Below, piece by piece: positions 3,500-24,975 of a stretch of DNA of 32,000 bases. Where the stretch lies: NCBI GenBank assembly GCA_963821285.1, contig CAWGDD010000012.1, positions 9,027 through 41,026 of the forward strand, read 5' to 3'. Source of the DNA: an uncultured Acidobacteriota bacterium (GTDB lineage: Bacteria > Acidobacteriota > Vicinamibacteria > Vicinamibacterales > CAVVIG01). The notes beneath the pieces are model-generated. The model did no database searches and was not told the origin of the DNA. It saw only the letters and a list, made by a program, of their open reading frames with translations. The position numbers and the translations under genes were made by a program. How positions within the stretch are numbered: the first letter of the stretch is position 1; every line of letters starts with the position of its first letter.

Positions 3500-5806
3500 A
3501 TGTCCCTCAGGTCCGACCTCCATGGGGCGCTGCTCCATGGCCGGTGGCGTCGCGCGTTCCACCATCAGCGCCGGCTGATAGCCGGCCTGGCCGTCGGTGT
3601 CACGGTCCTCACCGCGTCCCTGGTGGGCAGCGGCGTCTGGCTGCTCGCCAGCGTGCGCTCCGGGCTTCCTGCCAGTGAGGCGCTCGGGCGCATCGGCGAG
3701 ATGGCCGAAGCCACGCTCGTGTACGACGTCCACGACAAGCTGGCCTTCACGATCTTCAACGAACAGCGCATTGATGTCCCGCTGACGGATGTCTCTCCGC
3801 ATCTGGTCCACGCGATCATCGCGGTCGAGGATCAGCGCTTCTACACGCACCACGGGTTCGACCTGATTCGCATCGCGTCGGCCGCGCTCGTCAACGTCCG
3901 GCGCGGTCGCGCCGCGCAGGGCGGCAGCACGATCACGCAACAGCTCGCGCGGCAGAGTTTCCTCACGACCGACAAGACTCTCCGGCGGAAACTTCAGGAG
4001 CTCATCCTCGCCGAGCGCATCGAAGTGCTGTACCAGAAGACCGAGATTCTCGAGCTGTACCTCAACAAGGTCTACTTCGGCGACGGCCTCTACGGCGCCG
4101 AGGCGGCCTCGCGAGGCTACTTCGGCAAGCACGCGTCCGAGTTGTCTTTGTCGGAGGCCGCGCTGCTCGCCGGCCTCGTGAAATCCCCGACGGCCTACGC
4201 CCCGACCACCAACCTCGATCGCGCCATCACCCGCCGGAACCTCGTGCTCCAGGTCATGCGCGACACGGGCGCCATCGACCGTGAGGACTGGCAGCGCGCC
4301 CGTACCGCGCGCGTCGTCCTGCGCGATACGCTTCGGAGCAGCGACTTGCGCGGGCAGTACTTCCAGGAACAGCTGCGGCAGGAGCTCGTCGAACGCTTCG
4401 GCTGGGAGCAGGTCTACCGGGGCGGCCTCCGCGTGTACTCGACGATCGACATGGACGTGCAGGACGCCGCCGAAGCGTCGGTGGCGCAGTCGCTGAAGGC
4501 CCTCGACGAGAAACGCCAGGCGCGGACACGCGCGCGCGACGAGCGCGCTGTGAACGAAGCCCGCGCCAACACTGCCGGCCCGCTGCAGGCCGCGCTCATC
4601 GCGATGGATCCGCGCACCGGCCACGTCCGCGCGATGGTCGGCGGACGCGACTTCGCCGAGAGCCGCTTCAACCGCGCCGTGCAGGCGCGACGTCAGCCCG
4701 GCTCGGCGTTCAAGCCGTTCGTGTATGCCGCGGCGCTCGAGGCCGGGTACACCCCCGCGACGATCCTGGACCACCTGAACGATCAGGTAGCCACACCGCA
4801 GGGGAACTGGGCGCCCGCAGACGGACACTCGACGGCCGAATCGATGTCTCTGCGCACGGGGCTCAAGACCTCGAGCAACCGCGCCGCCGTACGGCTGCTG
4901 CAGCAGGTCGGCATCCCGCAGACGGTCGAGTACGCCAAAGCCATGGGCATCGGCGACGTGCCCAGCGTCCCGTCGCTCGCGCTCGGGTCCGGCGAAGTCA
5001 CGCTGCAATCGCTCACCGCCGCCTACGGGGCGTTCGCCAACCACGGCCTGGTGTCGCAACCGATCCTCATCAGGCGCGTCGAGGACACGGGCGGCAAGGT
5101 TGTGTACACGAACGAGCCCTCCACCGTTCGCGCGATCAGCGACACGACGGCGTACCTGATGTCGACGATGCTGGCCGATGTGATCAACGGGGGTACGGCC
5201 GCGAGCGCGCGCAGCTTCGGCTTCACGCTGCCGGCCGGCGGCAAGACCGGCACGACCAACGACTACAACGACGCGTGGTTCGTCGGGTTCACGCCGAACC
5301 TGGTCGCAGGCGTCTGGGTGGGGTTCGATCAGCCGCGCACGATCCTGCCGGGCGGTTTCGCGGCCGAAGTCGCCGTCCCGCTCTGGGCGCGCTTCATGAA
5401 GACGGCCACGAAAGGCGACAAGCCGGAGTGGCTGCCGATGCCCCCGGAGATCACGGTCGTCAACGTCTGCCGCCTGTCAGGGAAGCTCGCGACCGGCGGC
5501 TGCGAACACCTCGACGTCGTCGACGGCCACATCGATCACCAGCCGGCCGTCTATGCCGAGTACTTCGTGAGCGGGACGGAACCGACCGCCTACTGCGATC
5601 TGCACGGGTCCCGCGGTCTCGTCGGCGTCCTCACCTCGATCTTCCGCAGCGAGCCGCCGCCGCCCCCGCCGCACGTCGCCGATCATCAGCCACCGGCCGC
5701 GGCCGCCACCGACAGCACGCCCGCCACAGCCGCTCCGGCCGCCACCGAGGAGCCCGTCAAACAGAAGCGCGGCTTCTGGTCCAAACTGTTCGGACGCAAG
5801 AAATAG
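3500..5806 (+). CDS. mrcA: class A penicillin-binding protein 1A (glycosyltransferase GT51 + transpeptidase)
   Basis: 768 aa. N-terminal TM anchor. GT51 motifs EDQRFYTHHGFD, GGSTITQQL, RKLQE. Transpeptidase motifs SAFKP (SxxK), SSN, KTGTT. Pro/Ala-rich C-terminal tail. Confidence 0.95.
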   Translation: MSLRSDLHGALLHGRWRRAFHHQRRLIAGLAVGVTVLTASLVGSGVWLLASVRSGLPASEALGRIGEMAEATLVYDVHDKLAFTIFNEQRIDVPLTDVSPHLVHAIIAVEDQRFYTHHGFDLIRIASAALVNVRRGRAAQGGSTITQQLARQSFLTTDKTLRRKLQELILAERIEVLYQKTEILELYLNKVYFGDGLYGAEAASRGYFGKHASELSLSEAALLAGLVKSPTAYAPTTNLDRAITRRNLVLQVMRDTGAIDREDWQRARTARVVLRDTLRSSDLRGQYFQEQLRQELVERFGWEQVYRGGLRVYSTIDMDVQDAAEASVAQSLKALDEKRQARTRARDERAVNEARANTAGPLQAALIAMDPRTGHVRAMVGGRDFAESRFNRAVQARRQPGSAFKPFVYAAALEAGYTPATILDHLNDQVATPQGNWAPADGHSTAESMSLRTGLKTSSNRAAVRLLQQVGIPQTVEYAKAMGIGDVPSVPSLALGSGEVTLQSLTAAYGAFANHGLVSQPILIRRVEDTGGKVVYTNEPSTVRAISDTTAYLMSTMLADVINGGTAASARSFGFTLPAGGKTGTTNDYNDAWFVGFTPNLVAGVWVGFDQPRTILPGGFAAEVAVPLWARFMKTATKGDKPEWLPMPPEITVVNVCRLSGKLATGGCEHLDVVDGHIDHQPAVYAEYFVSGTEPTAYCDLHGSRGLVGVLTSIFRSEPPPPPPHVADHQPPAAAATDSTPATAAPAATEEPVKQKRGFWSKLFGRKK

Positions 5807-5966
5807 GTTCCGGAGGTTCCAGGGGTTCCCGAGGTTCCAGGGGTTCCCGAAGTTCCGGAGGTTCCCGAGCAGCTGCGGATTCGCCTGACAAGGGACCCGG
5901 GAGCCTGGAACCTCCCGAGCCTTCGGAACCTGGGGAACCTCCGGAACTCCGGGAACCCCTGGAACC
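5806..5966. repeat. inverted pair of nonamer arrays: 7 x GGTTCCNNN, 23-nt spacer, ~8 x NNNGGAACC
   Basis: Left arm 5806-5868 (ggttccgga ggttccagg ggttcccga ggttccagg ggttcccga agttccgga ggttcccga). Spacer 5869-5891. Right arm 5892-5966 with GGAACC/GGACCC cores. It runs from the last base of the PBP1A stop to 2 nt before the stop of the convergent GGDEF gene. Confidence 0.95.
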
Positions 5967-5968
5967 TT

Positions 5969-8233: not shown

Positions 8234-8297
8234 GACTCCGGGTGCGCGTGCGCAGCCACGCGCGTGTTTGGGGGGCTGAACTTAGGTTACGGGAAAC

Positions 8298-8396
8298 ACA
8301 GGGCTAAAGGCAAAGGGCAGAGCGCACAGGGCAGGTTTTTGCCCTCTGCCCTTTGCCCTTTGCCCTCTGCCCTTTGCCCTCTGCTCTCTGCTCTTC
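8298..8396. repeat. inverted pair of heptamer arrays: 5 x ARAGGGC, loop GTTTTT, 8 x GCCCTYT
   Basis: Left arm: acagggc taaaggc aaagggc agagcgc acagggc. Loop 8335-8340. Right arm: gccctct gcccttt gcccttt gccctct gcccttt gccctct gctctct gctcttc. It ends 2 nt before the stop (8399-8401) of the minus-strand OMP gene. Confidence 0.95.
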
Positions 8397-8398
8397 TC

Positions 8399-9004
8399 TT
8401 ACTGGAGGACGAGGGCCGCGCTGGCGCGCCCGAAATTCAGCTTCGTCCCGCCGCCGGGAGAGAGGCTCAGAATATTCAGTTCCTGAAACGAGTTGAAGTG
8501 GCGGATGTCGCCGCGGATGCCGACGTGCTGGCCGAACATCACGAACAAGCCGGCGCCCGCGTCCCACGCGAACGTGTTGTTGCTGAAGGAAACGATCGCA
8601 ATGGGGTTCAGGTTGACGTGGGCTTTCATCAGGCCGACGCCGAACAAGCCGTACGGACGCACCGGGCCAATCTTCGGCGCAATCATGAAGTTGCTCATGA
8701 CCGTGAGGACGTTCGAGTCCGCTCCGGACTCGCTGCTGCCGAAGAAGTCCTTGGCCCACGCGATTTCCTCTTCGAACCCGCCGGCCTTCCCCAACTTGCC
8801 GAACGAGAACCCGATGTTGAGCTTCTTCTGTTCGCAGCCTTTCAGCGTCTGGCAGAGCGAGTCGCCGCTGTAGTCGTAACCGAAGAGCGCGGTGAAAAAC
8901 CCCTGCGCTCGAGCGTCCGTAGCCGTGCACGACAGAAACGCGAGAACGGTCGCACTCAGCGCGCAGAGACGTTTGAGGTGCGCGAGCCTGGTTTTGGTGA
9001 ACAA
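8399..9004 (-). CDS. small outer-membrane beta-barrel protein (OmpW/porin-like), putative
   Basis: 201 aa. TTG start at 9004. Signal peptide ending DARAQG. Glycine/aromatic-rich alternating pattern typical of small beta-barrels. No specific family motif recognised. Confidence 0.5.
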   Translation of the reverse strand: MFTKTRLAHLKRLCALSATVLAFLSCTATDARAQGFFTALFGYDYSGDSLCQTLKGCEQKKLNIGFSFGKLGKAGGFEEEIAWAKDFFGSSESGADSNVLTVMSNFMIAPKIGPVRPYGLFGVGLMKAHVNLNPIAIVSFSNNTFAWDAGAGLFVMFGQHVGIRGDIRHFNSFQELNILSLSPGGGTKLNFGRASAALVLQ

Positions 9005-9022
9005 TTTACGCAGTCTCCTGTA

Positions 9023-9427
9023 TCAATCTTTCGGTTGTCCGGTCTGCGTCAGCACCCGGCCGTCCGCGAGCGTCGCCCGCACGAACATGCCGCCGTTCTC
9101 CCCGCTCCTGAGCGGCCGGACGGCAATCGTCACCTTGTCACCGGGCTTCAGCGTGGTTTTGGTCCAGCCTCGACGCGCCAGGTAGTTCGGGCTCATGCCT
9201 TCGACCGCCCAACTGTCGACGCCGCCCTTCTCGTTCGGCACGTCCACCCAGATCCACGAGTGCGGGTTCGTCCACTCGAACTTGCTCACCGTCCCCGTGA
9301 TGGTCTTTTCCATCGTCAGGTCGAACGGCGCGAAGGAGTGGTGAGCCGTTGCGGTGGTGCCGGCGGCGAGCACGAGGCCGCACAGCGTGAGCACCGGTAC
9401 AATCAGGTATCGGAAGATCGCCCTCAT
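9023..9427 (-). CDS. small exported protein, DUF6152-like
   Basis: Start moved to ATG 9427 (MRAIFRYLIVPVLTLCGLVLAAG, a signal peptide). The mature part begins AHHSFAPFD and contains WTNPHSWIWVDV, which I recall as characteristic of DUF6152. This is memory, not a search. The start lies 4 nt after the upstream gene stop. Confidence 0.6.
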   Translation of the reverse strand: MRAIFRYLIVPVLTLCGLVLAAGTTATAHHSFAPFDLTMEKTITGTVSKFEWTNPHSWIWVDVPNEKGGVDSWAVEGMSPNYLARRGWTKTTLKPGDKVTIAVRPLRSGENGGMFVRATLADGRVLTQTGQPKD

Positions 9428-9431
9428 GGGG

Positions 9432-10214
9432 TTAGTCCTTCTTGCCTGATGCAGACTCAGGCTTCGCAAGGTTGATGCCGGCCTTCCCGCTCGCATCCAC
9501 GGAATTCCTGTTGTTTTCCTCACACACGTACTCGGCAATCGTCCAGTTGCGGTGACGCTTCAGCACCCGGGTCGAGGTGAAGGGCTCCGTCAGCACGTCC
9601 GGATCGACGATCGTGGTTTCGATGGACATCGTGTCAGGATCGGTCAGGCGGAAGCGTTCCCGGATGCGCATCCGGTCGCCGTGCGGAACGCCGCGCTCGA
9701 GCTGCGTCAGCGGCGAAAACCCGACCGTATCGACGACGAGCGCGTCGCCTTCCCATCGCCCGACCGACGTGCCGTGAAACGTGAGGTCCGGATCCTGCGG
9801 GAGCGGACGGCCGTCTGTGTAAATGTGCCGCACCTGCGTGTAGGCCTCGATCACGATCGTCACCTGGCCGGGCGTTAGGAGAAACTCCATCGGATACGGC
9901 TGGCCCATGATCCCCGGCATGCCGGGCGGCAGGCAGTTGGCCGTCTCGCTGTCCTCGGGCGGGTGGGCGTCGAACGCCTGCTTCTTCGCGGCGTACGCGG
10001 GCGTGAGTGAGGGGCCCGCGGGCCCGCGGCCCCGGCCGGGCGCGGCCGGGGCGCTGCCTCGAGGCGGCGGCGCCCCAAACGACAGTTCCCACACGCCGTT
10101 GAAGTCGGGCAGCTTCGCGAGGTTCGACCAGTCCGCCGCCGTCGGCGCCGGGCGCTGCGCGACCACGATGGCGGACATGCCGGCAAGTGCCAGGCAGAAC
10201 AGGAATCGAGTCAT
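9432..10214 (-). CDS. exported protein of unknown function
   Basis: Start moved to ATG 10214 (MTRFLFCLALAGMSAIVVAQ, a signal peptide). 260 aa. C-terminal YVCEENNRN motif. No family recognised. Forms an operon with the two downstream genes. Confidence 0.55.
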   Translation of the reverse strand: MTRFLFCLALAGMSAIVVAQRPAPTAADWSNLAKLPDFNGVWELSFGAPPPRGSAPAAPGRGRGPAGPSLTPAYAAKKQAFDAHPPEDSETANCLPPGMPGIMGQPYPMEFLLTPGQVTIVIEAYTQVRHIYTDGRPLPQDPDLTFHGTSVGRWEGDALVVDTVGFSPLTQLERGVPHGDRMRIRERFRLTDPDTMSIETTIVDPDVLTEPFTSTRVLKRHRNWTIAEYVCEENNRNSVDASGKAGINLAKPESASGKKD

Positions 10215-10243
10215 AGCATCACCACACTGCGATCGTGCCTTAA

Positions 10244-10315
10244 CGAACCACAAGGATCACCAAGGCCACCAAGCAATCGTGAACCCTTTGTGAGCCTCGT
10301 GGTCTTTGTGGTTCG
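10244..10315. repeat. inverted pair of degenerate nonamer arrays (CACCAAGG-type) closed by a perfect 10-bp outer inverted repeat
   Basis: cgaaccacaa (10244-10253) is the exact reverse complement of ttgtggttcg (10306-10315). Inner units are ggatcacca aggccacca versus tgagcctcg tggtctttg. It lies between the cyclase-family stop (10328) and the start of the next minus-strand gene (10214). Confidence 0.85.
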
Positions 10316-10327
10316 TACGTTCGTCCA

Positions 10328-11374
10328 TCAAAACATCGCGAGCGGGTTGACGATCGAGCCGGTGCTGCCCGGCACCTGCAGCGGCGCGACGACAAGCATG
10401 AACTCCCAGCGGTTCAGACGTGCGGCGGCCTCGGCCAGGCCGTCGAGCGCGACGCCGTCGAGCAGATAGGTGCCGAGTGCCACCAGCACGAGCCGGTGAT
10501 CGGCGTGACGATCCTCCGCGATCGCCATCACGTTGCTGGTCACGGCCACCCCGCGCGCCTTCATCCACGGCACCACCGACAGGTCGAACCCGGCGGCGGG
10601 CGCAGGCGGCTGTGCGCCGGCGCTCCTCGGGTTGTAGACGAACAGGGCGTCGCCCGCCGACACCTTCAGACCGGTCTGCATCTCCCAGGCTTCGATGTCT
10701 TCCGTATACACTCGCGTTCCCGCTTCGTTGTTTCCACGCGTTCCCGCTTCATTTCTTCCACGCGTTCCGGCTTGGCCGGAACGCGGATTCTTCAGGCGCG
10801 TCATGTCGATCAGAATCCCGCGCGTGACGATGCCCTCTTTGACGTTGTCGAGTCCGAGCTTCGTGCAGCCGATCTCCTGGCTGACGCTCTCGAGCGGGTA
10901 GCCGTTGTAGAGTTTTCCGCCGGAGCTGTCGTGGCAGAGTGCGTCGAGATGCGTCATCGGCCCGTGGACGTGCGACTCCTGGATGTCGCTGCTGAACCCG
11001 TCGTTGCCGCGGGGATCGCCGGCGGGAAACGTCTTGAAGCGGATGTCGAAGAACGCGACGCCGTGCGGCTTGCCGTCGGCTTTCGTTTCATCCGGCGCCT
11101 TCGACGGCACAATCCGCCGTTCGAGGGACACCACGGTGCCCGTTTTCGCAAGGGCCATCGCCTGACGCCGCTTCTCCGCCGTGATGAGGTTCAGGGCGCC
11201 CAGCTGATCGTCCTTGCCCCAGCGGCCCCAGTTCGACAGCTCGGTCATCCACCGATCGGCCTCGGCCTTCGTGACCGGCGGATGCCCGGGAATCGGGGAC
11301 GCGGGCTGCTGCGCGTGTCCTGCCGTCATTGGCAAGGTCAGTAGCGCCGTGAGAACGATCGCGCGAGGTGTCAT
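10328..11374 (-). CDS. cyclase-family protein (kynurenine formamidase-like fold), exported
   Basis: Start moved to ATG 11374 (AGAGGA upstream). Signal peptide MTPRAIVLTALLTLPMTAGHAQQ. HVHGPMTHLDALCH resembles the HxGTHxDxxxH metal motif of the putative cyclase family (PF04199). It carries an internal 24-nt repeat. Confidence 0.75.
   Translation of the reverse strand: MTPRAIVLTALLTLPMTAGHAQQPASPIPGHPPVTKAEADRWMTELSNWGRWGKDDQLGALNLITAEKRRQAMALAKTGTVVSLERRIVPSKAPDETKADGKPHGVAFFDIRFKTFPAGDPRGNDGFSSDIQESHVHGPMTHLDALCHDSSGGKLYNGYPLESVSQEIGCTKLGLDNVKEGIVTRGILIDMTRLKNPRSGQAGTRGRNEAGTRGNNEAGTRVYTEDIEAWEMQTGLKVSAGDALFVYNPRSAGAQPPAPAAGFDLSVVPWMKARGVAVTSNVMAIAEDRHADHRLVLVALGTYLLDGVALDGLAEAAARLNRWEFMLVVAPLQVPGSTGSIVNPLAMF
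10708..10786. repeat. three copies of a 24-nt unit inside the cyclase-family CDS; the last copy forms a perfect 11-bp hairpin
   Basis: The core cgcgttcc(c/g)gctt recurs at 10713, 10737 and 10761, exactly 24 nt apart. cgcgttccggc (10761-10771) / ttg / gccggaacgcg (10775-10785) is a perfect inverted repeat. The region encodes GQAGTRGRNEAGTRGNNEAGTRV in frame. Confidence 0.9.
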
Positions 11375-11435
11375 GGTTTCATCCTCTGCTCCCTGCCCGC
11401 CCGCTACGATAACATGTCGGATAAGCGCCACCGAC

Positions 11436-11470
11436 GACTGGCGACTGGCGACTGACGACTGACGACTGAT
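11436..11470. repeat. 5 tandem heptamers GACTGRY abutting the aminotransferase start codon
   Basis: Units: gactggc gactggc gactgac gactgac gactgat. The last unit overlaps ATG 11469. Same core and orientation as the arrays at 3377 and 13774. Confidence 0.9.
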
Positions 11471-13772
11471 GAAAATGACCCACGCATATGACGCCGCGAT
11501 GTCGCAGGCTGCGGCCTCGCTCGAACGCATCGACCAGCTGAACCAGCAGTATCGCGCCGGCCTGGTGCACGTGAACGTGCCCGGCGCGCTCGCCGACGCG
11601 GACCGGTCGGTCGACGCGCTGGTCGAACAGCACCTGCCGGCGTCCTGGGCCGCGCTGCAGGCCGCCTCGCGCGGGCTCTTCTTCTCGCTGCCGGTGGCCT
11701 TCAACCCGGCCGAGTCCGTCGGGCCTTACCTCGCCGCCGTCGATCGCGACGCCGCTGGCCAGCCGTACCGCTTCCTCGATATGGGCGCGCTCATCGCCAC
11801 GCAGGCCTTCGGCGAAAACGATCCGGCCATCGTCTCGGCGATCCTCGAGTCGCTGCCGTTCGTGACGACGCGGTACGCGCATTCGGAGTACCAGACCGTC
11901 CTGTCGCTGCGGCTGAAGGCCGAGCTGACGCGCATCGCGCCGGCAGGTACGCCGAGGCACTTCATCGTGAACACGGGCGCCGAGGCCGTCGAGAACGCGA
12001 TCAAGTCCGTCCTCATGAACCGCGTCATGACGTCGCCGGATGGCGACGGCGGCTTCATCGTGTCGTTCGACGGCGCATTCCACGGCCGCACGCTGGGCGC
12101 GCTGGCCGTGACGCACCGGAAGCGGGCACGCCTCGGCTTCCCGACGTTCGACTGGCCGCACGTACCTTTTCCAGTGGAAGCCGCGAAGTCGCCGAAAGAA
12201 ACAGCCCGGCGCGAGGAGCGCACCCTCAAGCAGTTATGGGACCTGCTCGTGTCGGGGCGGCTGCCGCGGGCGGAGAAGAGCAAGGACACTTTCAGGCGAG
12301 AAATGGATGCGATCGACACGTTTCTAGAGGTCCGAGGGGTCCAAGAGGTCCCAGGGGTCCAAGGGGTCCAAGAGGTCCAAGGGGTCCGAGAGGTCCGAGA
12401 GGTCCCGGACGTCCAGGCGTTCGTGCAGGAGCAACGCGCGAACCTGACGCCCGATGTGTTGCGTCGCGCGAAGCGCGTGGCGGCGGTGCTCGTCGAGCCG
12501 ATTCAGGGCGAGGGCGGGGTGCGCATGGCGAGCGCGCGCTTCATGCGGAAGCTGCGGCTGCTGACCCGCATCTACGACGTGCCCCTGGTGTTCGATGAAG
12601 TCCAGACCGGCTGGGGCATGACCGGCCGGCTGTGGGCCCACGAGCTGTTCGACCTGCCGTGTCCGCCTGACGTGGTGACCTGGGCCAAGAAAGCCCAGAA
12701 CGGCGTGCTGTTTGTCAGCGAGGAGCTGGCCACGTTCTTCCAGGAAGAAAAGAAGTTCAACACGACCTGGGAAGGCGACTCGGTCGGGATGGTCAGGCTG
12801 CTGGCGCTGCTCGACAAGCTGAACCTCGAGCAGGTCCGCGAGACCGGCGAGCGCGCGCGGGCCGGCCTCGAAGCGCTGGCGCGCGAGCACCGCGAGATTG
12901 TCAGAAACGTCCGCGGCGCGGGCGTGATGCTGGCCTTCGACGTCATCCGCGCCGACTGGTGCGAGGCCCTGCGCGACCGGGCGTTCCGGCGCGGCCTGAT
13001 CCTCCTAGGCGCGGGCGAGCGCAGCGTGCGCTTCTATCCCCGCTACGACACCGAGCCGTCCGCGATAGACGAGGCGATCGCGATCCTGCGCGCGGCGATC
13101 GACGACCTCTTCACGACGGGCGATCGCACTGCCGCCGCGCCCGCCCCACCGGAGGCGTCAGGGACCGGAGTCAAGACGCGCGTGGGCACGCTGGCCATCC
13201 CGCTCGACACGGTCGAGAACGTGGATCTCACGCCCGCGAACTTCGATGCCTGCAAACGTCAGATTCTCGCTGTCGAGCAGGAACGATACGGGACGGCCCC
13301 GCCGGACGCGGCAGGCGCCACCGAGCCGCACGAACACGGCCCGCGGTCGCCGCTGCAATTCACGATCGACACCCTCGAAGCCACGATGGCCAACCCGCAG
13401 GCGCTTGGTGTGGCGGTGCGCGACCGCGTGTCGGGACGCCTGGTCGCCTACGCGCTCGGCAGCGCGCTCGAGAACCACGACGAAGAAGGCGTCAGCTCGG
13501 ATCCGCACTTCGGCGAGAACAACACGTTCTACCTGCAGGCCGCCGCCACGCTGCCGACCGTCCAGAACGCGTCGGAGATCGAGAACTTCCTGCTGGAATC
13601 CCTGCGCGAACGCGCCCTGGCCGCGGACTTCGAGTACCTGTCCACGTTGATCGAAGAGCGGCTGCTCGAGACGGGACCACCATGGCTTCGTCAGGCGGTG
13701 GTCGTCGAGCGGATCGAAAACTACCTCGGGAGCGGCAGCACGTTCGCGTACCTGCAGGCGGCGCTGAAATAG
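11469..13772 (+). CDS. class-III PLP aminotransferase (L-lysine 6-transaminase-like) fused to a ~230-aa C-terminal domain of unclear function
   Basis: 767 aa. Core motifs GAEAVENAIK, VLVEPIQGEGG and FDEVQTGWGMTGRLWAHE...VTWAKKAQNG resemble Lat-type class-III transaminases. Residues after ~550 (…RLVAYALGSALENHDEEG…FYLQAAATLP…) are extra; a GNAT-like fold is only a guess. An alternative start is ATG 11475. Confidence 0.8.
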   Translation: MKMTHAYDAAMSQAAASLERIDQLNQQYRAGLVHVNVPGALADADRSVDALVEQHLPASWAALQAASRGLFFSLPVAFNPAESVGPYLAAVDRDAAGQPYRFLDMGALIATQAFGENDPAIVSAILESLPFVTTRYAHSEYQTVLSLRLKAELTRIAPAGTPRHFIVNTGAEAVENAIKSVLMNRVMTSPDGDGGFIVSFDGAFHGRTLGALAVTHRKRARLGFPTFDWPHVPFPVEAAKSPKETARREERTLKQLWDLLVSGRLPRAEKSKDTFRREMDAIDTFLEVRGVQEVPGVQGVQEVQGVREVREVPDVQAFVQEQRANLTPDVLRRAKRVAAVLVEPIQGEGGVRMASARFMRKLRLLTRIYDVPLVFDEVQTGWGMTGRLWAHELFDLPCPPDVVTWAKKAQNGVLFVSEELATFFQEEKKFNTTWEGDSVGMVRLLALLDKLNLEQVRETGERARAGLEALAREHREIVRNVRGAGVMLAFDVIRADWCEALRDRAFRRGLILLGAGERSVRFYPRYDTEPSAIDEAIAILRAAIDDLFTTGDRTAAAPAPPEASGTGVKTRVGTLAIPLDTVENVDLTPANFDACKRQILAVEQERYGTAPPDAAGATEPHEHGPRSPLQFTIDTLEATMANPQALGVAVRDRVSGRLVAYALGSALENHDEEGVSSDPHFGENNTFYLQAAATLPTVQNASEIENFLLESLRERALAADFEYLSTLIEERLLETGPPWLRQAVVVERIENYLGSGSTFAYLQAALK
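12329..12418. repeat. 10 tandem nonamers GGTCCNRGR inside the aminotransferase CDS, in frame (30 codons)
   Basis: Units: ggtccgagg ggtccaaga ggtcccagg ggtccaagg ggtccaaga ggtccaagg ggtccgaga ggtccgaga ggtcccgga cgtccaggc. Translated as VRGVQEVPGVQGVQEVQGVREVREVPDVQA. Confidence 0.95.
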
Positions 13773-13773
13773 C

Positions 13774-13808
13774 GACTGCCGACTGCTGACTGCTGACTGC
13801 TGACTGAC
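13774..13808. repeat. 5 tandem heptamers GACTGYY immediately after the aminotransferase stop
   Basis: Units: gactgcc gactgct gactgct gactgct gactgac. The array starts 2 nt after TAG 13770-13772. Confidence 0.9.
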
Positions 13809-13907
13809 ACGTTGCGCCCGTGACCACGGACGCCCGTTGGAAACCGTGGCCACGAGAGCACGTTGCTCCCGTGACCAACTTGAGCACCTTGAAAACGGTG
13901 ACGCCCG

Positions 13908-14243
13908 TTAGAAGTCGATCGTCGCGTTGAACCGCAGGAACCGCACGTTCAGGATCGCGGTCGGACGCAGCCACGCTGACCCGTCCGCTCCATACGCCTG
14001 GTTGAACGTGGTCCCCGTGTTCGCGTTGAACAGGTTGTAGAGATCGATTCCGACGTTGCTGCGGGTTCTCCCGAACTTGAGGATCTTCGAGAACCGCATG
14101 TCGACGGTGTTGAGCCGGTCGGGGTAGATGTCGCCCTGCTTGCTCAGGTTGACAGTGATGTTCTGTCCGTTGCCCGCCAGCGGACGGCCGGCGGCGGCAA
14201 TCACCTGGGCGTTGGTCATGACGTTCAGTCCGTCAGTGTTCAT
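13908..14243 (-). pseudogene. 3' remnant (~105 codons) of a TonB-dependent receptor / outer-membrane beta-barrel gene
   Basis: The translation ends ...DMRFSKILKFGRTRSNVGIDLYNLFNANTGTTFNQAYG...ILNVRFLRFNATIDF, with the terminal-Phe beta-barrel signature typical of roughly 1000-aa TonB-dependent receptors. An in-frame TGA lies 6 codons upstream of the first Met. An AT-rich junction and an opposite-strand gene follow immediately. Confidence 0.6.
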
Positions 14244-14277
14244 TTTAGCTAAAAATAAGTTTCATGAGAGTAAACAG

Positions 14278-15138
14278 TTGACCATAGCCACCTCGACCGC
14301 CGATTTCCCGGCCCGCCGCCTGGCATTCCGGGCACTGCACGAGCACGGCTGCTTCGTCATCCCGAACCCGTGGGACCCGGGGTCGGCTCGCTACCTTCAG
14401 CACCTCGGATTTCAGGCGCTTGCCACGACGAGCGCCGGATTCGCGTTCTCTCGAGGCCTGCCCGATTCGTCCCGCGCGGTGAGGGTGGACGCGGTTCTCG
14501 GCCACATCGCGGACGTCGTCAGCGCGGTTGATCTGCCGATCAACGCGGACTTCGAGTCCGGCTACGCGGACGATCCGGACGGCGTCGCCGCCAGCGTTCG
14601 CCGGTGTGTCGCAACGGGCGTGGCGGGGCTCTCGATCGAAGACGCGACGGGCGATCGCGCACGGCCGCTCTACGATCTGCCTCGGGCGGTCGAGCGGCTC
14701 GAGGCCGCGCGCGCCGCGATTGACGAGTCCGGAGCCGGCGTGCTGCTGACGGCAAGGGCCGAGTGCTTCCTGGTGGGCCATGAGGACCCACTGCGGGAAT
14801 CGATCCGCCGGCTCGCGGCGTACGCCCAGGCCGGCGCCGACGTCCTGTTCGCGCCGGGCATCTACCAGCGCGACGACATCAGGGCGCTCACGGGCGCACT
14901 CGCGCCGAAGCCGGTCAACGTCCTCGTCGGCCGGAACATCGGGCTGACCGTGGCCGATCTGGCCGCGCTCGGCGTCCGCCGCATCAGCGTCGGCTCGGCG
15001 CTCGCACGGGCCGCGTGGACGCGGTTCATCGAAGCCGCCAAGGACATCGCCGCCGAAGGCCGGTTCACGAGCCTTGATGGTCTGACGCCGTTTGCGGATC
15101 TGAACGGCTTCTTCAAGGGGCTGGCAGACCGGGATTAA
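14278..15138 (+). CDS. isocitrate lyase / PEP mutase superfamily enzyme (2-methylisocitrate lyase or carboxyvinyl-carboxyphosphonate phosphorylmutase-like)
   Basis: FVIPNPWDPGSARYL, LATTSAGFAF, INADFESGY and GLSIEDA are typical of the ICL/PEPM superfamily. The track ORF start (14128) overlaps the receptor remnant. The only plausible in-frame start after the AT-rich junction is TTG 14278, so the start is uncertain. Confidence 0.75.
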   Translation: MTIATSTADFPARRLAFRALHEHGCFVIPNPWDPGSARYLQHLGFQALATTSAGFAFSRGLPDSSRAVRVDAVLGHIADVVSAVDLPINADFESGYADDPDGVAASVRRCVATGVAGLSIEDATGDRARPLYDLPRAVERLEAARAAIDESGAGVLLTARAECFLVGHEDPLRESIRRLAAYAQAGADVLFAPGIYQRDDIRALTGALAPKPVNVLVGRNIGLTVADLAALGVRRISVGSALARAAWTRFIEAAKDIAAEGRFTSLDGLTPFADLNGFFKGLADRD

Positions 15139-17262: not shown

Positions 17263-17436
17263 CCGGTCCTCGGGCCTTGGTACTGGTCCTTGGTCCGTTC
17301 TTGGTCCTTGGTCCGTCCTTCGTCCGTGGTCCCATGGTCCATGCTGTCCGCTGCAGATCGCCGTGCCGCGCACCAGGAACCAAGGACCGAGGATGGACCA
17401 GGGACCAGAACGAAGGCCCAAGGCCCAGAGACCACC
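17263..17436. repeat. inverted pair of GGTCC / GGACC-core arrays (18-nt super-period in left arm) with 27-nt spacer
   Basis: Left arm 17263-17343: ggtcctcgg gccttggta ct ggtccttggtccgttctt ggtccttggtccgtcctt cgtccgtggtcccatggtccatg. Spacer 17344-17370. Right arm 17371-17436: ...aaggaccgaggatggaccagggaccagaacgaaggcccaaggcccagagaccacc. It lies in the divergent gap between starts 17224 (-) and 17459 (+). Confidence 0.9.
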
Positions 17437-17458: not shown

Positions 17459-19936
17459 ATGACCGACCGCGAGCGCATGGAAGACGTAGGGTTCATGACG
17501 TGCATGACCCTCACGCTGCTGGGAAACTACGCCCAGACGGGGCATTTCGGCGGGCCGCTGGCCTACACGCCGTTCAACGTGGCCACCCACCTGGCCGGAC
17601 CCGACAACGGCGGGCTGCGCTACGACTACCGGCGCCCCAAGCACCCCTACAGCGACAAGTTCATGCTCGCGGCCGGACACTGCGCGCCGACCTGCTACGC
17701 GCTGTGGATGATCATGGGCGAGGCCCTCGCCCGGCGGCATCAGGCGACCGGCGACAAGAAGTACCGCGTCGCCCCCGACGTCGCGATGCTGTCGATTGAC
17801 GCGCTGGGCTTCCGGCGCGGCGCGGGCGCGCTGAAGACGCTCCTCGCCGACAACGGCCTCGCCGATCACCCGCGGTTCGCGCAGGCGAAGGGCCGCGGCA
17901 TCCGCGCGCTGTCCGGACACATCGAGTCCACCGACGTCACCAACGATGTCAACGGCGGACCCTCGGGCGTCGGCGTCGCCACGGCGGCCGGCAAGGCCGC
18001 GTTCTGGGACATCGTCGGCGCGCCCATGGGCCGGCCGAAGATCGTCGCGTTCGAAGGCGAGTTCGCCATGTGCGCCGGACACGCGCAGGAACTGAAGACG
18101 CAGGCCATCGCGCTCCAGACCGGCAAGCGCCTGCGCGTGTTCTTCTCCGACAACAACGCCGGCATCGACGACGCGCTTATCGGCGGCGTGGTGCACAGCA
18201 AGTTCGAGGGCTACAAGCTGAAGGAGCAGTGGACGTCGTACGGCTGGAACGTCTTCACGATCGCCGACGGCCACGACTACGGCCAGATTACGGACGTCCT
18301 GAAGAAAATGGAAGGCTGGGATCCGGACGACCGGCGGCCGATGATCGTCATCGGCAAGACGACGAAGGGCTACTGGCCCACAGCCGTCGGCGGGAAGATT
18401 CTAGGCGCCGGCGACCAGATCGTCGGCTACCAGAGCCATCCGTTCGCCTTCAAGATGAACACCGACTACATCGTCGCGCTCGCGCGGACGTTCGAGGAGC
18501 GGTACGGCGTGAAGTTCGAGGGGATGGAGAAGGGGCCCGTCACCGACACGAAGGAACGGCTGCTGCAGTTCAAGACGAACATGGACGTGGCGATGTCCGT
18601 GCTCGATCGCAACGGCCTCGGCGACTGGCTGTCGGATCGGCTCGTCGAGCTCGGCGACATGGTGAAGGACGAGTTCCCGCTCCGCATCGATGTAACGAAG
18701 GATCCCTTCCTCGACGATCGCCTGCGCGTCGCCAACCTGCCCGAAGGCACCCAGACGCTGGCGGTGACGAACCCGAGCGGCGCGAAAAAAGACGTGAAGG
18801 TCGCGCTGTTCCGCAAGGCCGGCGAGACGGCCGGCGCGCGGCGGGCGATCTCCGAGATCATCAAGTGGCTGAACTACGTGACGGACAACCGCGTGCTGAC
18901 CGTCGCGGCGGATCTGTCCGAGTCCGTGAACCTCGAGCACGGGAGCCTCTGGGGCCACTACGATCCTGACACCAACCCGAGCGGCACGAGGCTCAAGGCC
19001 GCGATTCAGGAAGCGGGCAACGTCTCGACCGCCATCGGCCTCGTCAGCCAGAACGCGTCGGTCGATCCCGACAAGTTCGCCGGCGTCTGGGCGTTCAGCG
19101 GCACGTACGGCGCGTTCACGCCGCTGATGTATCTGCCCGCGCGTGTGTGGAGCCAGCAGAACCAGGACAGCCGTTTCCGCACGGGCGTGCTGCACATCCT
19201 GTCGGCGCACTCGGGCCCCGAGACGGCGGCCGATGCCCGCACGCACTTCGGCATCTTCTCGCCGCAGGTGTGGAAGCTGTTTCCGCGGGGACAGGTCATC
19301 AACCTGAGCTTCTGGGACTACAACGACGTGGCGGCCGGCTACTTCGCGGCGGCCGAGATCGCGGCGCGCGACAAGAAGGTGGGCATCATCACGATCGAGG
19401 TCGCGCGGCCCGACTTCCCCGTCGCCGATCGCAGCACATTCGCGGACACGGACCTCAAGGCCGCGGCCAAGGGCCTGTACGTCATCCGCGACTTCGCGCC
19501 CGGCAAGCCGACGCACGGCTACGTCGTCGCGCAGGGCTCCAGCGCGACGTTCAACCTCGTGACCATCCTGCCGCGGCTCGAGCAGGCGGGCATCAATGTC
19601 AAAGTCGTGTCGGCGATCAGCGAGGAACTGTTCGATCGGCAGCCCGAGGCCTACCGGCGGTCGGTGCTTCCGACGGAGGCGCGGCAGGACCTGATGTTCG
19701 TGACCGGCGGCACGCGGCGCATGTGGCCGCTGCGCAACGTCGGCGCGCAGGCCGACGACTATTCGCTCACGGCGGACTGGGACAACCAGTGGCTCACCGG
19801 CGGCCTCGAACCCGACGTCATCGCCGAGGCGCACCTGGACAAGGAGTCGATCTTCGCCGGCGTTCAGCGCTTTGCGAGGGAGCGCGAGCAACGCCTCGAC
19901 GCGCAGCGCTCAGCGCTCGACGCGCTCACGGTGTGA
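17459..19936 (+). CDS. transketolase-like thiamine-diphosphate enzyme, unusually long (825 aa)
   Basis: ATG 17459 with GAGAGGA upstream. QTGHFGGPLAY and SDKFMLAAGHCAPTCYAL align with transketolase SGHPGxxxG and RDRFVLSxGH. The ThDP/Mg motif region reads FEGEFAMCAGH...FFSDNNAGID where transketolases have GDG...DDNxxxID. Confidence 0.75.
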   Translation: MTDRERMEDVGFMTCMTLTLLGNYAQTGHFGGPLAYTPFNVATHLAGPDNGGLRYDYRRPKHPYSDKFMLAAGHCAPTCYALWMIMGEALARRHQATGDKKYRVAPDVAMLSIDALGFRRGAGALKTLLADNGLADHPRFAQAKGRGIRALSGHIESTDVTNDVNGGPSGVGVATAAGKAAFWDIVGAPMGRPKIVAFEGEFAMCAGHAQELKTQAIALQTGKRLRVFFSDNNAGIDDALIGGVVHSKFEGYKLKEQWTSYGWNVFTIADGHDYGQITDVLKKMEGWDPDDRRPMIVIGKTTKGYWPTAVGGKILGAGDQIVGYQSHPFAFKMNTDYIVALARTFEERYGVKFEGMEKGPVTDTKERLLQFKTNMDVAMSVLDRNGLGDWLSDRLVELGDMVKDEFPLRIDVTKDPFLDDRLRVANLPEGTQTLAVTNPSGAKKDVKVALFRKAGETAGARRAISEIIKWLNYVTDNRVLTVAADLSESVNLEHGSLWGHYDPDTNPSGTRLKAAIQEAGNVSTAIGLVSQNASVDPDKFAGVWAFSGTYGAFTPLMYLPARVWSQQNQDSRFRTGVLHILSAHSGPETAADARTHFGIFSPQVWKLFPRGQVINLSFWDYNDVAAGYFAAAEIAARDKKVGIITIEVARPDFPVADRSTFADTDLKAAAKGLYVIRDFAPGKPTHGYVVAQGSSATFNLVTILPRLEQAGINVKVVSAISEELFDRQPEAYRRSVLPTEARQDLMFVTGGTRRMWPLRNVGAQADDYSLTADWDNQWLTGGLEPDVIAEAHLDKESIFAGVQRFAREREQRLDAQRSALDALTV

Positions 19937-19943
19937 ATACGAA

Positions 19944-20852: not shown

Positions 20853-20881
20853 TCGACAACCCCCGGGCAAATCTGTAGAAT
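20853..20881 (+). promoter_or_regulatory. sigma-70-like promoter candidate for the S8 protease gene
   Basis: TCGACA (20853-20858), a 17-nt spacer, then TAGAAT (20876-20881). It lies about 43 nt upstream of ATG 20924, which is preceded by GAGGAGG. Confidence 0.3.
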
Positions 20882-20923: not shown

Positions 20924-23559
20924 ATGCGCACATTTCTCGGCGCTACCGCCGCGAGTCTTCTGCTCGCCAGCATGATCGGGTACGCGCAGACCGAGCAGTC
21001 CGTGTCGAGACTCGATAACGAATCGTCCGATTCCTGGTTCGTCGAGCTGGCGAGCCCCCCGACCACCGAAGGCACGGCCACCGCCACGCTCGAACGCGAG
21101 GAAGCGACGTTCCACGCGGCCGCCGCGGGCGCCGGCGTCCGGTACTCGCGCGGACGCAGCTACCGTGACCTCTGGAACGGCGTCACGGTGCGCGCGACGG
21201 CCCGCGAAGTGTCGAAGCTGCGCTCGCTCCCGGGTGTACAGGCGGTGTATCCGGTCGTCAAGATCTCGATACAGCAGGCCGAAGAGCCGCCGGGTGACGT
21301 CGCGGATCTGGTGACGGCGATCAAGATGACCGGCGCCGACGTCGCGCAGAGCGTGCTCGGGCTGTCGGGCCGCGGCGTGAAAGTCGCCGTGATCGACACC
21401 GGTATCGACTACAACCATCCAGACCTCGGCGGATGTTTCGGCCGCGGCTGCCGCGTCAGCCTCGGCTTCGATTTCGTGGGCGATGACTTCAATTCGAGCT
21501 CAGCCGACCCGGCGAAGCTGGTCCCCACCCCGATCCCGACCCCGACGACTGCAACGGCCACGGCACACACGTGAGCGGCATCATCGGCGCCAACGGCGTC
21601 ATCAAGGGCGTCGCGCCCAACGTCAGGTTCCGCGCGTACCGTGTCTTCGGCTGCGAGGGCTCGACGACGGCCGACATCATGCTCGCCGCCATGGAGCGCG
21701 CGCGGGCCGACGGCGCCGACGTCGTGAACATGAGCATCGGCAGCGCGCTGTCGTGGCCGCAGTACCCGACCGCGAAGGCCGCCGACCGCCTCGTCCGCCA
21801 CGGCGTCGTCGTCGTCGCGTCGATCGGCAACGAGGGCGCGCTCGGCCTCTACGGCGCCTCCGCGCCCGGCGTCGGCAGGAACGTGATCGGCGTCGCGTCG
21901 TTCGACAACTCGCACGCGAATCTCGTCGCGTTCACGATCTCGCCCGACGCGGCGAAAGTCGGCTACGTGGACGCGGCAGGCGCGCCGCCGACGCCCCTGG
22001 CTGGCTCGTTCCCGATGGCCCGGACCGGCACCACCACGACCACCGACGACGCGTGCGCGGCGCTGACGCCGGGAAGTCTGACAGGCAGCGTCGTCCTGAT
22101 TCGGCGCGGCACCTGCTCGTTCTACCAGAAGGCGTTCAACGCGCAATCGGCCGGCGCGGCGGGCGTCGTGCTCTACAACAACGCCCCGGGCTTCATCTCG
22201 CCGACCGTGGCGGGCACACCGGCCATCACGATTCCCGTCGTCTCCATCAGCGCCGCCAACGGCGCCGTGATCAACGGACGCCTCGCCGGCGGCAGCGTGA
22301 CCATGACGTGGACATCGCTGGTCACCAGCGAAGCGCAGCCGACCGGCGGCCTCATCTCCAGCTTCTCGTCGTATGGCCTGCCGCCCGATCTCAGCTTCAA
22401 GCCGGACATCGGCGCGCCCGGCGGCTCAATCCGCTCGACACTACCGCTCGAGCAGGGCGGGTACGGCAACCTGAGCGGGACGTCGATGTCGTCGCCGCAC
22501 GTCGCCGGAGCCGTCGCGCTCCTGCTCGAGGCACGGCCAGACGCCCGCCCGCAGGAAGTCGAGCAGCGCCTGCAGAACTCGGCGCGGCCGGCGGTGTGGT
22601 GGGGCAACCCCGCGCTGGGCTTCCTCGACAACGTCCATCGCCAGGGCGCGGGCATGCTGCGCATCGACGACGCGGTAAAGGCCGACGCGATCGTGTCCCC
22701 GAGCAGCCTCGCACTCGGCGAGATCGAGACGGGCTCTGTCACGAAGCGGCTCCGCGTCTCCCTGGACGATGACGACGATCACCGCGACCATCATCATTGG
22801 GGCGACAAGCACAAGGGACGCGGCCACGACGATGATGACGACGATACCCCGGTCACGTACACGCTGAGCCACGAGCCGGCGCTCTCGACCGGCGCGAACA
22901 CGTTCACGCCGTCGTTCCGCACCGGCTTCGCGACCGTCACGTTCAGCGCGCCGACCGTGACCATCGGCGGCGGCCACCACCATCACGAGGACGTCGACTC
23001 GATCGACGTCACGATCACGCCTCCTGCGGCGGATCCGGCGACCCGGCTATTCGGCGGGTACATCGTGTTCACCCCTGACGACGGCAGCGGCGTGCTGCGC
23101 GTGCCGTACGGTGGATACAACGGCGACTACCAGGCGATCGTGGCCGTGACGCCGACGCCGGCCGGATTCCCGTGGCTGGCGAAGATCGTCGGACCGAACC
23201 TCGTCAACCAGCCGGGCGGCGCCACCTACACTCTCGTAGGCGACGATGTCCCGTTCCTCCTGCTGCACCTCGACCACCAGGTCAGGACGCTGAAGCTGGA
23301 CGTCATCGACGTGGCGACCGGCGAATCGGCGGGCTTCGCCGACATCGAGGAGTTCCTGCCGCGCAACAGCACCGCGACGTCGTTTTTCGCGTTCACGTGG
23401 GACGGCACCGTGATGCATCGGCCGGGGGGCATGCTCCGGCCGGTCGCCGACGGGGCGTACCGGATTGAACTGTCGGTGCTCAAGGCGCTGGGCGATCCCG
23501 ACAACCCCGCCCACACCGAGCACTGGACGTCGCCGAACATCACAATCGATCGGCCATAA
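20924..23559 (+). pseudogene. secreted subtilisin-like (S8) serine protease with PA-domain insert and C-terminal Fn3-like region; frame broken once near 21528-21534 (possibly a sequencing artefact)
   Basis: Signal peptide. The catalytic Asp (VAVIDTGIDYNHPDL) is in frame 1. DPDPDDCNGHGTHVSGIIG (catalytic His) and GTSMSSPHVAG (Ser) are in the next frame. Frame 1 stops at 21574. The frames can be joined by adding one C to the C4 run at 21528-21531. PA-domain segment: SVVLIRRGTCSFYQKAFNAQSAGAAGVVLYNN. Confidence 0.85.
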
Positions 23560-23562
23560 CTC

Positions 23563-23667
23563 GAGGTCCAAGAGGTCCAAGGTCCGAGGGGTCCGAGGGG
23601 TCCAAGCCCAGGTGGACCTCTCGGACCACTCGGACCTAATCTCTTGTGGTCTTGGACCTCTCGGACT
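23563..23667. repeat. inverted pair of GGTCC / GGACC nonamer arrays
   Basis: Left arm: gaggtccaa gaggtccaa ggtccgagg ggtccgagg ggtccaagc (23563-23607). Right arm: gtggacctc tcggaccac tcggaccta ... ggtcttggacctctcggac (23612-23667). The reverse complement of 23611-23637 matches 23581-23604 with 2 mismatches. The array starts 4 nt after the protease stop. Confidence 0.9.
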
Positions 23668-24914
23668 TTTTGCCTCCCTCCGTTTTGCGCGTCGTCGTCG
23701 CGGCCCTTGGCGGCGCGGCAATCGGCTTCGAACGCCAGTGGTCCGGGCACGCGACCGGGCCCCGTGCGCGATTCGGGGGAATCCGCACGTTCACGATGCT
23801 CGGCGGCCTCGCCGGCCTCGCGGGCTGGCTCGTCACCATCAACCTGACCGGCTTCGCCATCGTCCTGACCGCTGGAGCCGTCGCGCTCGTCATCGCGGGC
23901 TACGTCGCAGCCAGTCGCGTTGAGGTGGACGCCACGACGGAGACGGCGGCACTGATCGTCGTGGCCGCCGGAGTCGCCGCCGGCTTGGGCTGGCTCGCGC
24001 TGTCGAGCGGTATCGTCGCCGTGACCACGCTTCTGCTCGTCGAGAAATCCAGGCTCCATGCGATGGTGGGGCGGCTGGACGACGAGGAGATGCGTGCCGC
24101 GGCGCGCTTCGGCGTGATGGCGATCGTCGTCCTGCCGCTCCTGCCCGAGGGACCGATCGGGCCGTTCGGCGGCTTCAGGCCGCGGGCGCTGTGGCTGCTG
24201 GTGCTGTTCTTCACGGGCCTGAGCTTCGCCGGCTACCTGGCCCGCCGCACCTTTGGCGCCGGCAAGGGCTATCCGCTAGCGGGGATCCTCGGCGGCCTGA
24301 TTTCGTCCACCAACACCACGTTCACGTTCGCGCGCCTGAGCCGCCGCGAGAAGGCGCTCTCCGGCCCGCTGGCCGCCGGCACGATCGGCGCGTGCGCGAT
24401 GCTGTTTCCGCGCGTGCTCGTCGCGGCCTCCGTGCTGAACCTGCCGGTCGCACGGCTCCTGCTCCCGTACCTGGTGGTGCCATTTGCGATCGGAGCGCTC
24501 GCGCTGGCGTTCTGGTGGAGAAGAAGCCGCAAAGAGCTGCGCGGCCATCACGAGCCGCCCGCCAATCCCCTGCAGCTCTTTCCCGCGCTGCAGATGGCGG
24601 CGGTCTTTCAGATCGTGCTGTTCGGGGTCGATGCGGCGCGCCGCGCGTTCGGGAACCCAGGCCTGCTCGTGTCGGGTGCCGTGCTCGGGCTGACCGACGT
24701 GGACGCGCTGACGATTTCCATGACTACCACGCCGAGCGCCGGCAGCGCGCCCGCCGTCGCCGCGCAAGTGATCGCGGTCGGCATCCTGACGAACTGCCTG
24801 TTGAAGATGGGCGTGGCCGCTGCGCTCGGAAGCCCGCGCTTCGCCAGGGCGACGGCGGGCCTGCTGGCCGCCATGGCCATCGCCCTCATGGTCGCGCTCG
24901 GCGTTCTTCGCTGA
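23646..24914 (+). CDS. MgtC/SapB-type N-terminal domain plus DUF4010 polytopic membrane protein
   Basis: AALGGAAIGFERQW...GIRTFTMLG is the MgtC-family N-terminal signature, followed by about 10 further TM helices as in DUF4010 proteins. The track start (GTG 23646) lies inside the repeat array. TTG 23670 or TTG 23685 are equally plausible starts. Confidence 0.75.
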   Translation: MVLDLSDFLPPSVLRVVVAALGGAAIGFERQWSGHATGPRARFGGIRTFTMLGGLAGLAGWLVTINLTGFAIVLTAGAVALVIAGYVAASRVEVDATTETAALIVVAAGVAAGLGWLALSSGIVAVTTLLLVEKSRLHAMVGRLDDEEMRAAARFGVMAIVVLPLLPEGPIGPFGGFRPRALWLLVLFFTGLSFAGYLARRTFGAGKGYPLAGILGGLISSTNTTFTFARLSRREKALSGPLAAGTIGACAMLFPRVLVAASVLNLPVARLLLPYLVVPFAIGALALAFWWRRSRKELRGHHEPPANPLQLFPALQMAAVFQIVLFGVDAARRAFGNPGLLVSGAVLGLTDVDALTISMTTTPSAGSAPAVAAQVIAVGILTNCLLKMGVAAALGSPRFARATAGLLAAMAIALMVALGVLR

Positions 24915-24921
24915 GATCTCA

Positions 24922-24975
24922 GGACCCCTGGGACCCCTCGGACCTCTCGGACCCCTCGGACCCCTGGGACCTATC
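24922..24975. repeat. 6 tandem nonamers GGACCYCTS, single arm
   Basis: Units: ggacccctg ggacccctc ggacctctc ggacccctc ggacccctg ggacctatc. It lies between convergent genes, and the last unit overlaps the ppc stop codon (24971-24973). Confidence 0.95.

Follow-up and report, generated by a model that had tools for sequence, protein, structure and literature searches.

An in-frame nonamer array of variable copy number in an aminotransferase gene of an uncultured Vicinamibacterales bacterium

We analyzed a 32,000-nt stretch of DNA from an uncultured Acidobacteriota bacterium (assembly GCA_963821285.1, contig CAWGDD010000012.1, positions 9,027 to 41,026 of the forward strand; GTDB lineage Bacteria; Acidobacteriota; Vicinamibacteria; Vicinamibacterales; CAVVIG01). 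This stretch, referred to below as the window, is the part of the source genome visible to us, and the dispersal of its repeats is judged within these 32 kb. Inside a gene for a class-III aminotransferase lies a tandem array of ten 9-nt units, read in frame as thirty codons. We consider it likely that this array is a coding-region variable number tandem repeat (VNTR) that slippage expanded from ancestral [D/E]-V-x codons, in a loop where the enzyme is tolerant of insertions. In orthologous genes, copy number tracks relatedness, from ten units in the window to seven in the closest relative and three in two more distant ones, and the frame is kept throughout. The array was first described in an initial annotation of the window, made by a model from the letters and a list of open reading frames (ORFs) without database searches. 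The features concerned are the following:

12329..12418, + strand: nonamer array in frame with the gene, ten units of the form GGTCC-N-A-G-R with degeneracy in the final two (Tandem Repeats Finder (TRF), sequence, unit phasing, shuffle test)
11469..13772, + strand: host gene, intact, encoding a class-III aminotransferase of 767 aa resembling Lat and gamma-aminobutyrate aminotransferase (GABA-AT) (ORF, matches to Pfam, NCBIfam and PDB, ratio of nonsynonymous to synonymous substitution rates (dN/dS))
12261..12461, + strand: residues 265-331, an insert peculiar to the family and absent from solved GABA-AT (HMMER alignment to 4y0i, AlphaFold2 model)

The coding array and its counterparts in orthologous genes

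Starting at 12329, the ten units are GGTCCGAGG, GGTCCAAGA, GGTCCCAGG, GGTCCAAGG, GGTCCAAGA, GGTCCAAGG, GGTCCGAGA, GGTCCGAGA, GGTCCCGGA and CGTCCAGGC. TRF places the array at 12326-12415 with a period of 9, 8.9 copies and 85% matches (score 104), and also reports higher-order periods of 18 (score 110) and 27 (score 128). The array encodes residues 288-317, VRGVQEVPGVQGVQEVQGVREVREVPDVQA, that is (V-x-x)10, with Val codons from 12330; one predicted tryptic peptide spanning it is EVPDVQAFVQEQR. The initial annotation had described just such a ten-unit, GGTCC-core array encoding (V-x-x)10 in a class-III aminotransferase gene, and TRF, the 767-aa ORF and a match to Pfam Aminotran_3 all bear it out. 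The pattern GGTCC-N4-GGTCC, tested against 100 shuffles of the window, occurs 18 times against 0.21 expected, and none of the shuffles contained as many. All 18 matches fall in three places: the coding array, 23565-23636 and 24922-24971. The coding array is beyond chance.

The segment between two conserved anchors was then compared across 145 orthologous loci. Its length is 10 aa in 74 of these loci (consensus LAQPGQDVNA), 13 aa in 30 and 16 aa in 16; in the window it is 32 aa. This comparison agrees with the initial annotation in presenting the 30 codons as an insertion or expansion particular to a lineage. The annotation had also held that the sequence would count as ancestral if orthologues in unrelated taxa had an equally long homologous segment without repeats; none was found among the 145 loci. 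Loops of 10, 13, 16 and 19 aa (the equivalent of window 12324-12419, in L002-L161) form classes separated by three-residue steps with almost none between, in a count for which kinship was uncontrolled. Decayed 9-nt duplications of [D/E]-V-x can be seen in the longer classes, among them outgroup loops of 13 or 16 aa; the pair GTGAACGCC/CTGAACGTC in L023 is one example. Two loci, L005 (3148-3252) and L141 (1972-2076), carry an unrelated, non-repetitive 35-aa insert, LAQLPSQGFGEPRRSSPEQPASGGGPAPGADAVNA, at the position of the array. The site is therefore permissive and tolerates various insertions.

Close relatives show the number of units changing without a frameshift, as the initial annotation had expected. 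The closest, L001 (93.6% nucleotide and 95% amino acid identity), has seven units where the window has ten. Over the full length of the gene the two sequences differ by a single indel, a 27-nt block at 12365 that equals exactly three units. Two relatives at 81% identity have three units each in the window's frame: L162 carries GGTCCCAGG, GGTCCCAGG and GGTCCACGA, and L163 three units of the GGTTCAAGA type. The loop was masked for a neighbour-joining tree of the orthologues; in this tree all sequences whose loops contain repeats (EVx, GPQ or GSS) form a single clade, at about 81% identity to the query, and the outgroups are short-looped.

The same loop carries a related nonamer in another reading frame. 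Members of the G-S-S lineage (L164, L165, L166 and L160) have nonamers GGTTCGAGT and GGTTCAAGC there, with a GGTTC core at codon phase 0; the loop tail GAG GTT CTC GCG in these genes is in phase 2, as in the window. An 8-mer, GGTTCAAG, is common to GGTTCAAGA of L163 and GGTTCAAGC of L164, and is read as E-V-Q in the former and as G-S-S in the latter. As for the G-P-Q lineage (P0002, P0005), its peptide suggests that the window's nonamer may be present in the window's frame. If the G-P-Q unit is CCCCAAGGT, with CAA in the frame of the window's GTC CAA GGG, the sister lineages would share one ancestral array.

Codon usage in the array departs from that of the rest of the gene. CAA accounts for 4 of 5 codons for its amino acid in the array vs 2 of 25 elsewhere, CGA for 3 of 3 vs 2 of 62, and GGG for 4 of 4 vs 8 of 48; GC content at third codon positions (GC3) is 0.73 vs 0.88. 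All six reading frames of the array are free of stop codons. Because of the rare codons, the six open frames and the occurrence of the GGTYC nonamer in two frames across lineages, we regard the array as a DNA-level repeat and not as an optimized coding sequence or a selected peptide. A collagen-like or other structural repeat was rejected, since GC3 and homology establish V-x-x as the frame of the gene and Gly-Pro-Arg is read in another. A role in RNA structure was likewise dismissed. The fold of the array is no better than that of shuffles (z = -0.67), and a search of the aminotransferase gene for a complementary GGACC run that could serve as a partner arm found none, so that the array is single-armed, as first described.

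The host aminotransferase and its loop

The codon-position GC profile of ORF 11469..13772 is that of a real gene (GC3 0.88). Its product matches Pfam Aminotran_3 (PF00202; E = 1.8e-64) with 218.4 bits against a gathering threshold of 30.5; the family-specific insert divides the match in two. The nearest solved structures are pig GABA-AT (4y0i) and Mycobacterium tuberculosis Lat (2cin), with E of about 6e-43. The initial annotation had called the enzyme Lat-type. NCBIfam LAT_fam (TIGR03251, L-lysine 6-transaminase) is indeed the best family match, but its 215.6 bits lie far under the equivalog cut-off of 520.8; the protein is not a true Lat, of which it is only a distant relative, and therefore belongs to a separate aminotransferase family. 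Members of this family are 728-782 aa long, have an extra C-terminal domain and come chiefly from metagenome-assembled genomes (MAGs) of Vicinamibacterales and other Acidobacteriota; orthologues at 56-66% identity occur in Anaeromyxobacter and in Gemmatimonadales and Rokubacteria MAGs. The C-terminal domain of about 200 aa (window 13170-13769, residues ~568-767) has no Pfam match (best E = 0.17). It is conserved throughout the family and is modelled as alpha/beta, with a predicted local distance difference test (pLDDT) score of 80-94.

With the array left out, comparison with L001 gives a dN/dS of 0.156 and comparison with L162 one of 0.154. The gene is under purifying selection, with dN/dS about 0.15; genes that carry the array are thus functional, and the array itself is probably translated.

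In the HMMER alignment to 4y0i, query residue 264 is followed by residue 332 opposite GABA-AT residues 243/244, which delimits the family-specific insert. An AlphaFold2 model was built from an alignment of 72 close homologues; being weak overall (mean pLDDT 62.8; template modelling (TM) score 0.42 to Lat 2cin), it was used solely for its local pattern of helices and low-confidence residues. The model shows helices at 272-291 and 313-324 (pLDDT roughly 72-90) and, between them, residues 292-312 with pLDDT below 50. Both helices belong to the insert, which is absent from the solved GABA-AT and Lat structures, and the array is apparently the disordered tip of a family-specific helical excursion. 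This agrees with the initial annotation as to a loop. Large insertions into a conserved fold generally lie on the surface. Exposure of the loop, which the annotation had also proposed, is probable on that rule and from the position of the array at the tip of the excursion. The array had further been placed just before the conserved VLVEPIQGEGG strand (residues 340-350); it actually ends 22 residues earlier.

Arrays in the neighbouring spacers

Nonamers of the same or a related type also occur between genes of the window:

23563..23640, + strand: intergenic hairpin made of variants GAGGTCCAA and GGTCCGAGG together with the complementary units, with a T-run behind it, just after the stop of gene 21487..23559 (sequence, fold, pattern matches)
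24922..24971, - strand: single-arm array of 5.6 nonamer units (GGTCCCAGG, GGTCCGAGG and GGTCCGAGA on the - strand) (sequence, ORFs, pattern matches)
17263..17420, + strand: intergenic inverted arrays with a GGTCC/GGACC core and periods of 7, 11 and 18 (sequence, TRF)
5805..5967, + strand: inverted nonamer arrays with a GGTTCC/GGAACC core, in the spacer between convergent genes, ending in TTTTATT (sequence, fold, gene map)

The initial annotation had assigned the arrays at 17263, 23563 and 24922 to the nonamer family of the coding array and had described all three as hairpins. Membership holds for 23563 and 24922, which contain identical variants; the array at 17263 has only the 5-nt core in common with the coding nonamer. 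The hairpin at 23563-23640 is two-armed and stable (-70 kcal/mol, z = -7.29), whereas the 24922-24971 array, which occupies the spacer between convergent stop codons at 24914 and 24971, is a single arm and shows no hairpin (z = +1.39). The array at 5805-5967 folds strongly (-110.5 kcal/mol, z = -7.58), and its unit is, from its sequence, a sister type to the GGTCC nonamer.

Arrays of other units are frequent in the window. About a dozen, with 7-9-nt units, mostly abut stop or start codons, and they largely fill the spacers at 3379-3466, 5805-5967, 8297-8395, 10220-10327, 11433-11469, 13774-13877, 17263-17420, 19943-20047, 23563-23640 and 24917-24972. Each has its own unit of 7, 8 or 9 nt, and several are inverted pairs that give long, near-perfect hairpins with z from -7 to -10.6, some of which have a T-run behind them. 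Judging from the folds and from T-runs read in the sequence, the spacer hairpins look like terminators built from arrays; a simple terminator scan is blind to such long array hairpins (loops >8 nt). One of them, an inverted array of 8-mers (TGGTCATC/ATGACCAG) between a transketolase gene and the next convergent gene, occurs in the window at 19946-20047 (z = -10.63), in L165 at 17757-17859 and in L166 at 17841-17876. Conservation of its position and unit at about 81% identity suggests a maintained, functional hairpin.

Cyanobacterial short tandemly repeated repetitive (STRR) heptamer arrays and intergenic hairpins of the repetitive extragenic palindromic (REP) or bacterial interspersed mosaic element (BIME) type offer a general likeness: the spacers of the window likewise hold 7-9-nt arrays, often as inverted pairs, that form long hairpins beside stop codons. 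The taxon differs, however, being a member of the Vicinamibacterales in the Acidobacteriota, and the units are specific to each locus instead of forming one conserved family. In the literature on Acidobacteria or Vicinamibacter, we found no description of such tandem or hairpin arrays.

These arrays turn over rapidly. Between the window at 8300-14400 and L001 (about 6 kb at ~93% nucleotide identity), nearly every indel reflects a short tandem array that has been gained, lost or replaced. A 108-nt hairpin array at 10220-10327 is present in the window and absent from L001, and 3' of the aminotransferase stop L001 has a hairpin array of CACGAAG units vs GACTGCT heptamers in the window. The neighbouring gene, of the Pfam Cyclase family (10328..~11392, - strand), contains an in-frame 24-nt repeat at 10713-10773 that encodes AGTRGxNE; L162 has a single copy of it, the window about 2.5 and L001 about 3.3.

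A survey of 1.34 Mb of related loci located GGTYC nonamer arrays of at least three units in the loop that bears the array and in the spacers of the window itself, and nowhere else, which makes the coding array older and more widespread than the spacer arrays. Compared with L165 and L166 (~18346-18994), the window at 20879-24971 has two extra genes between the post-transketolase gene and the phosphoenolpyruvate (PEP) carboxylase gene: a 691-aa ORF (21487..23559) and an MgtC/DUF4010 gene (23646..24914), both without counterpart in L165 and L166. The two GGTCC-nonamer intergenic arrays lie exactly at the junctions of these genes. A scan of a viral collection for a three-unit GGTCC-NAGR pattern matched 20 contigs, several of them with matches hundreds of bases apart; IMG/VR contigs L168, L171, L172, L173, L175 and L177 (several of ~24-29 kb) have the pattern three times each, several hundred bases apart. 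These matches may represent collagen-like Gly-Pro-X coding repeats, probably unrelated to the array, and were set aside.

Origin of the array and comparison with known systems

Growth of the array by slippage would have started from a 9-nt unit corresponding to one ancestral [D/E]-V-x triplet (GAS GTS NNS), in the 'DVNA/EVQA' tail of the loop, at the tip of the helical excursion of this Lat/GABA-AT-like aminotransferase. Repeated duplication of this unit, by replication slippage or unequal recombination, would then have yielded a flexible 30-residue (E/G)-V-(Q/R/P) linker that is tolerated yet dispensable. Gains and losses of units keep the frame because the period equals three codons, and the array would gain, lose and reshuffle units fast relative to the rest of the gene. 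The setting would be a lineage in which 7-9-nt arrays form and are turned over throughout the genome, chiefly as intergenic hairpins. The last unit, CGTCCAGGC, corresponds to ancestral GAC GTC CAG GCG (DVQA). Because of this DVQA unit, of relatives with two or three units in frame and of decayed duplications in the outgroups, we favour expansion in place over insertion of a ready-made array; the initial annotation had left the choice between insertion and expansion open. Slippage is the presumed mechanism, and the loop is presumably neutral.

Several observations weigh against so simple a history. Neutrality is presumptive, and the structural model behind the loop is weak. Variants GGTCCGAGG, GGTCCGAGA, GGTCCCAGG and GGTCCAAGA of the coding array are found again in the intergenic arrays at 23563 and 24922, at a distance of 11-12.6 kb. 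Slippage confined to one site does not account for identical variants so far apart, and some ectopic copying or motif-biased process must be assumed in addition; one array-forming or array-copying process may well lie behind the coding array and both intergenic ones. Furthermore, the G-S-S lineage has a GGTYC-core nonamer in the same loop in a different frame, which implies either a compensating pair of frameshifts around an ancestral array or a second, independent expansion. We may hypothesize, with considerable doubt, that a motif-biased array-forming process operates in this Vicinamibacterales lineage and favours GGTYC-core nonamers together with other 7-9-nt units. Such a process would build the hairpin arrays that fill spacers and would write new peptides into permissive loops in any frame, accounting for E-V-Q in one lineage and G-S-S in another. 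It would be a tandem-amplification counterpart of the 'selfish DNA in proteins' of the Rickettsia palindromic element (RPE) type, and the arrays it produces would form a class of intergenic repeat not yet described in bacteria.

The array could instead be a copy, inserted ectopically into the loop, of an intergenic family spread through the whole genome, much like an RPE or a miniature inverted-repeat transposable element (MITE), and have survived thanks to its open frames and the permissive site. The identity of unit variants with the arrays at 23563 and 24922 speaks for this origin, as do the codon usage, atypical for the host gene, and the lack of stop codons in all six frames; moreover, the GGTYC nonamer occurs in two frames among sister lineages and within L164-L166, as if the DNA motif and not the peptide were being repeated. 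We nevertheless judge it unlikely. Relatives at 81% identity already have two to three units in the array's frame and position, outgroups have older 9-nt D-V-x duplications at the same site, and the array grades into ancestral DVQA codons without distinct ends, inverted arm or target duplication. The confinement of GGTYC arrays, among related loci, to the loop and the window's spacers likewise makes the coding array the older one.

Selection for a functional variable linker, in which unit number tunes activity, oligomerization or partner binding, would explain why expansion has recurred in the clade, and we give it little credence. Loop repeats have appeared in several sub-lineages (EVx, GPQ and GSS), loop classes of 10, 13, 16 and 19 aa differ by three residues and purifying selection preserves the array-bearing gene. 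However, the peptides are wholly different between lineages (EVQ, GSS and GPQ), and the insert of L005 and L141 is non-repetitive and 35 aa long. The segment is predicted to be disordered and has rare codons, most orthologues manage with 10 aa and intergenic arrays in the same genome turn over equally fast, so that mutational bias is enough. An artefact, through collapse or expansion of repeats during metagenome assembly, seems extremely improbable. Short tandem repeats are error-prone in short-read assemblies, and the exact count of ten rests on the assembly; yet independent assemblies from other samples (L001, L162 and L163) contain a homologous array in the same frame, the 90-nt array is below typical read length and the ORF is intact.

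Coding-region tandem repeat polymorphisms, either simple sequence repeats (SSRs) or VNTRs, have been surveyed in prokaryotic genes (PMC3315296). The window array resembles them in being a head-to-tail indel hotspot with a period that is a multiple of three, in varying between close strains and in occupying a spare region of the protein. Every testable property of a coding VNTR is present: tandem repetition beyond chance, an in-frame period and varying copy number with conserved flanks. Its 9-nt unit is longer than the 1-6 nt of classical SSRs. Unlike known coding VNTRs, it sits in a cytoplasmic pyridoxal phosphate (PLP) enzyme and not in a surface or contingency gene, its unit variants make up intergenic arrays as well, and a sister lineage has a related unit in a second frame.

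RPEs are discrete palindromes of ~150 bp that move as units, and MITEs also enter genes in frame (PMC10969869). As with these elements, an intergenic repeat family is also found within an ORF, where it adds a peptide at a site compatible with the fold, and within 32 kb the family is dispersed. The coding array differs in being single-armed and lacking self-complementarity, discrete ends and target-site duplication. Given its gradual variation in unit number and its lack of defined ends, amplification in place is the better description. Phase-variable contingency loci, in which SSRs drive on/off switching, for example in Haemophilus and Neisseria (PMC2651432, PMC4085013), also have slippage-prone tandem repeats inside a gene. 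The window array, in contrast, never shifts the frame and its gene encodes a metabolic enzyme; a phase-variation switch was ruled out, as the period is 9, the array is internal to the ORF and relatives with 3, 7 and 10 units are all in frame.

The coding array is a real but fairly ordinary variable repeat; the array-rich spacers and the use of one unit in two frames are more unusual. It provides a natural example of a 9-nt slippage hotspot that lengthens an enzyme loop stepwise (3, 7 and 10 units) with the gene unharmed, and it could serve as a strain marker for this uncultured lineage of soil Acidobacteria. The occurrence of the same units in intergenic hairpins and coding inserts, with a related unit in two frames, suggests a DNA-level driver of array formation. 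If it acts genome-wide, this driver would amount to a form of repeat biology not previously described, in a phylum that ranks among the most abundant in soil, and would offer a way for new disordered protein segments to arise.

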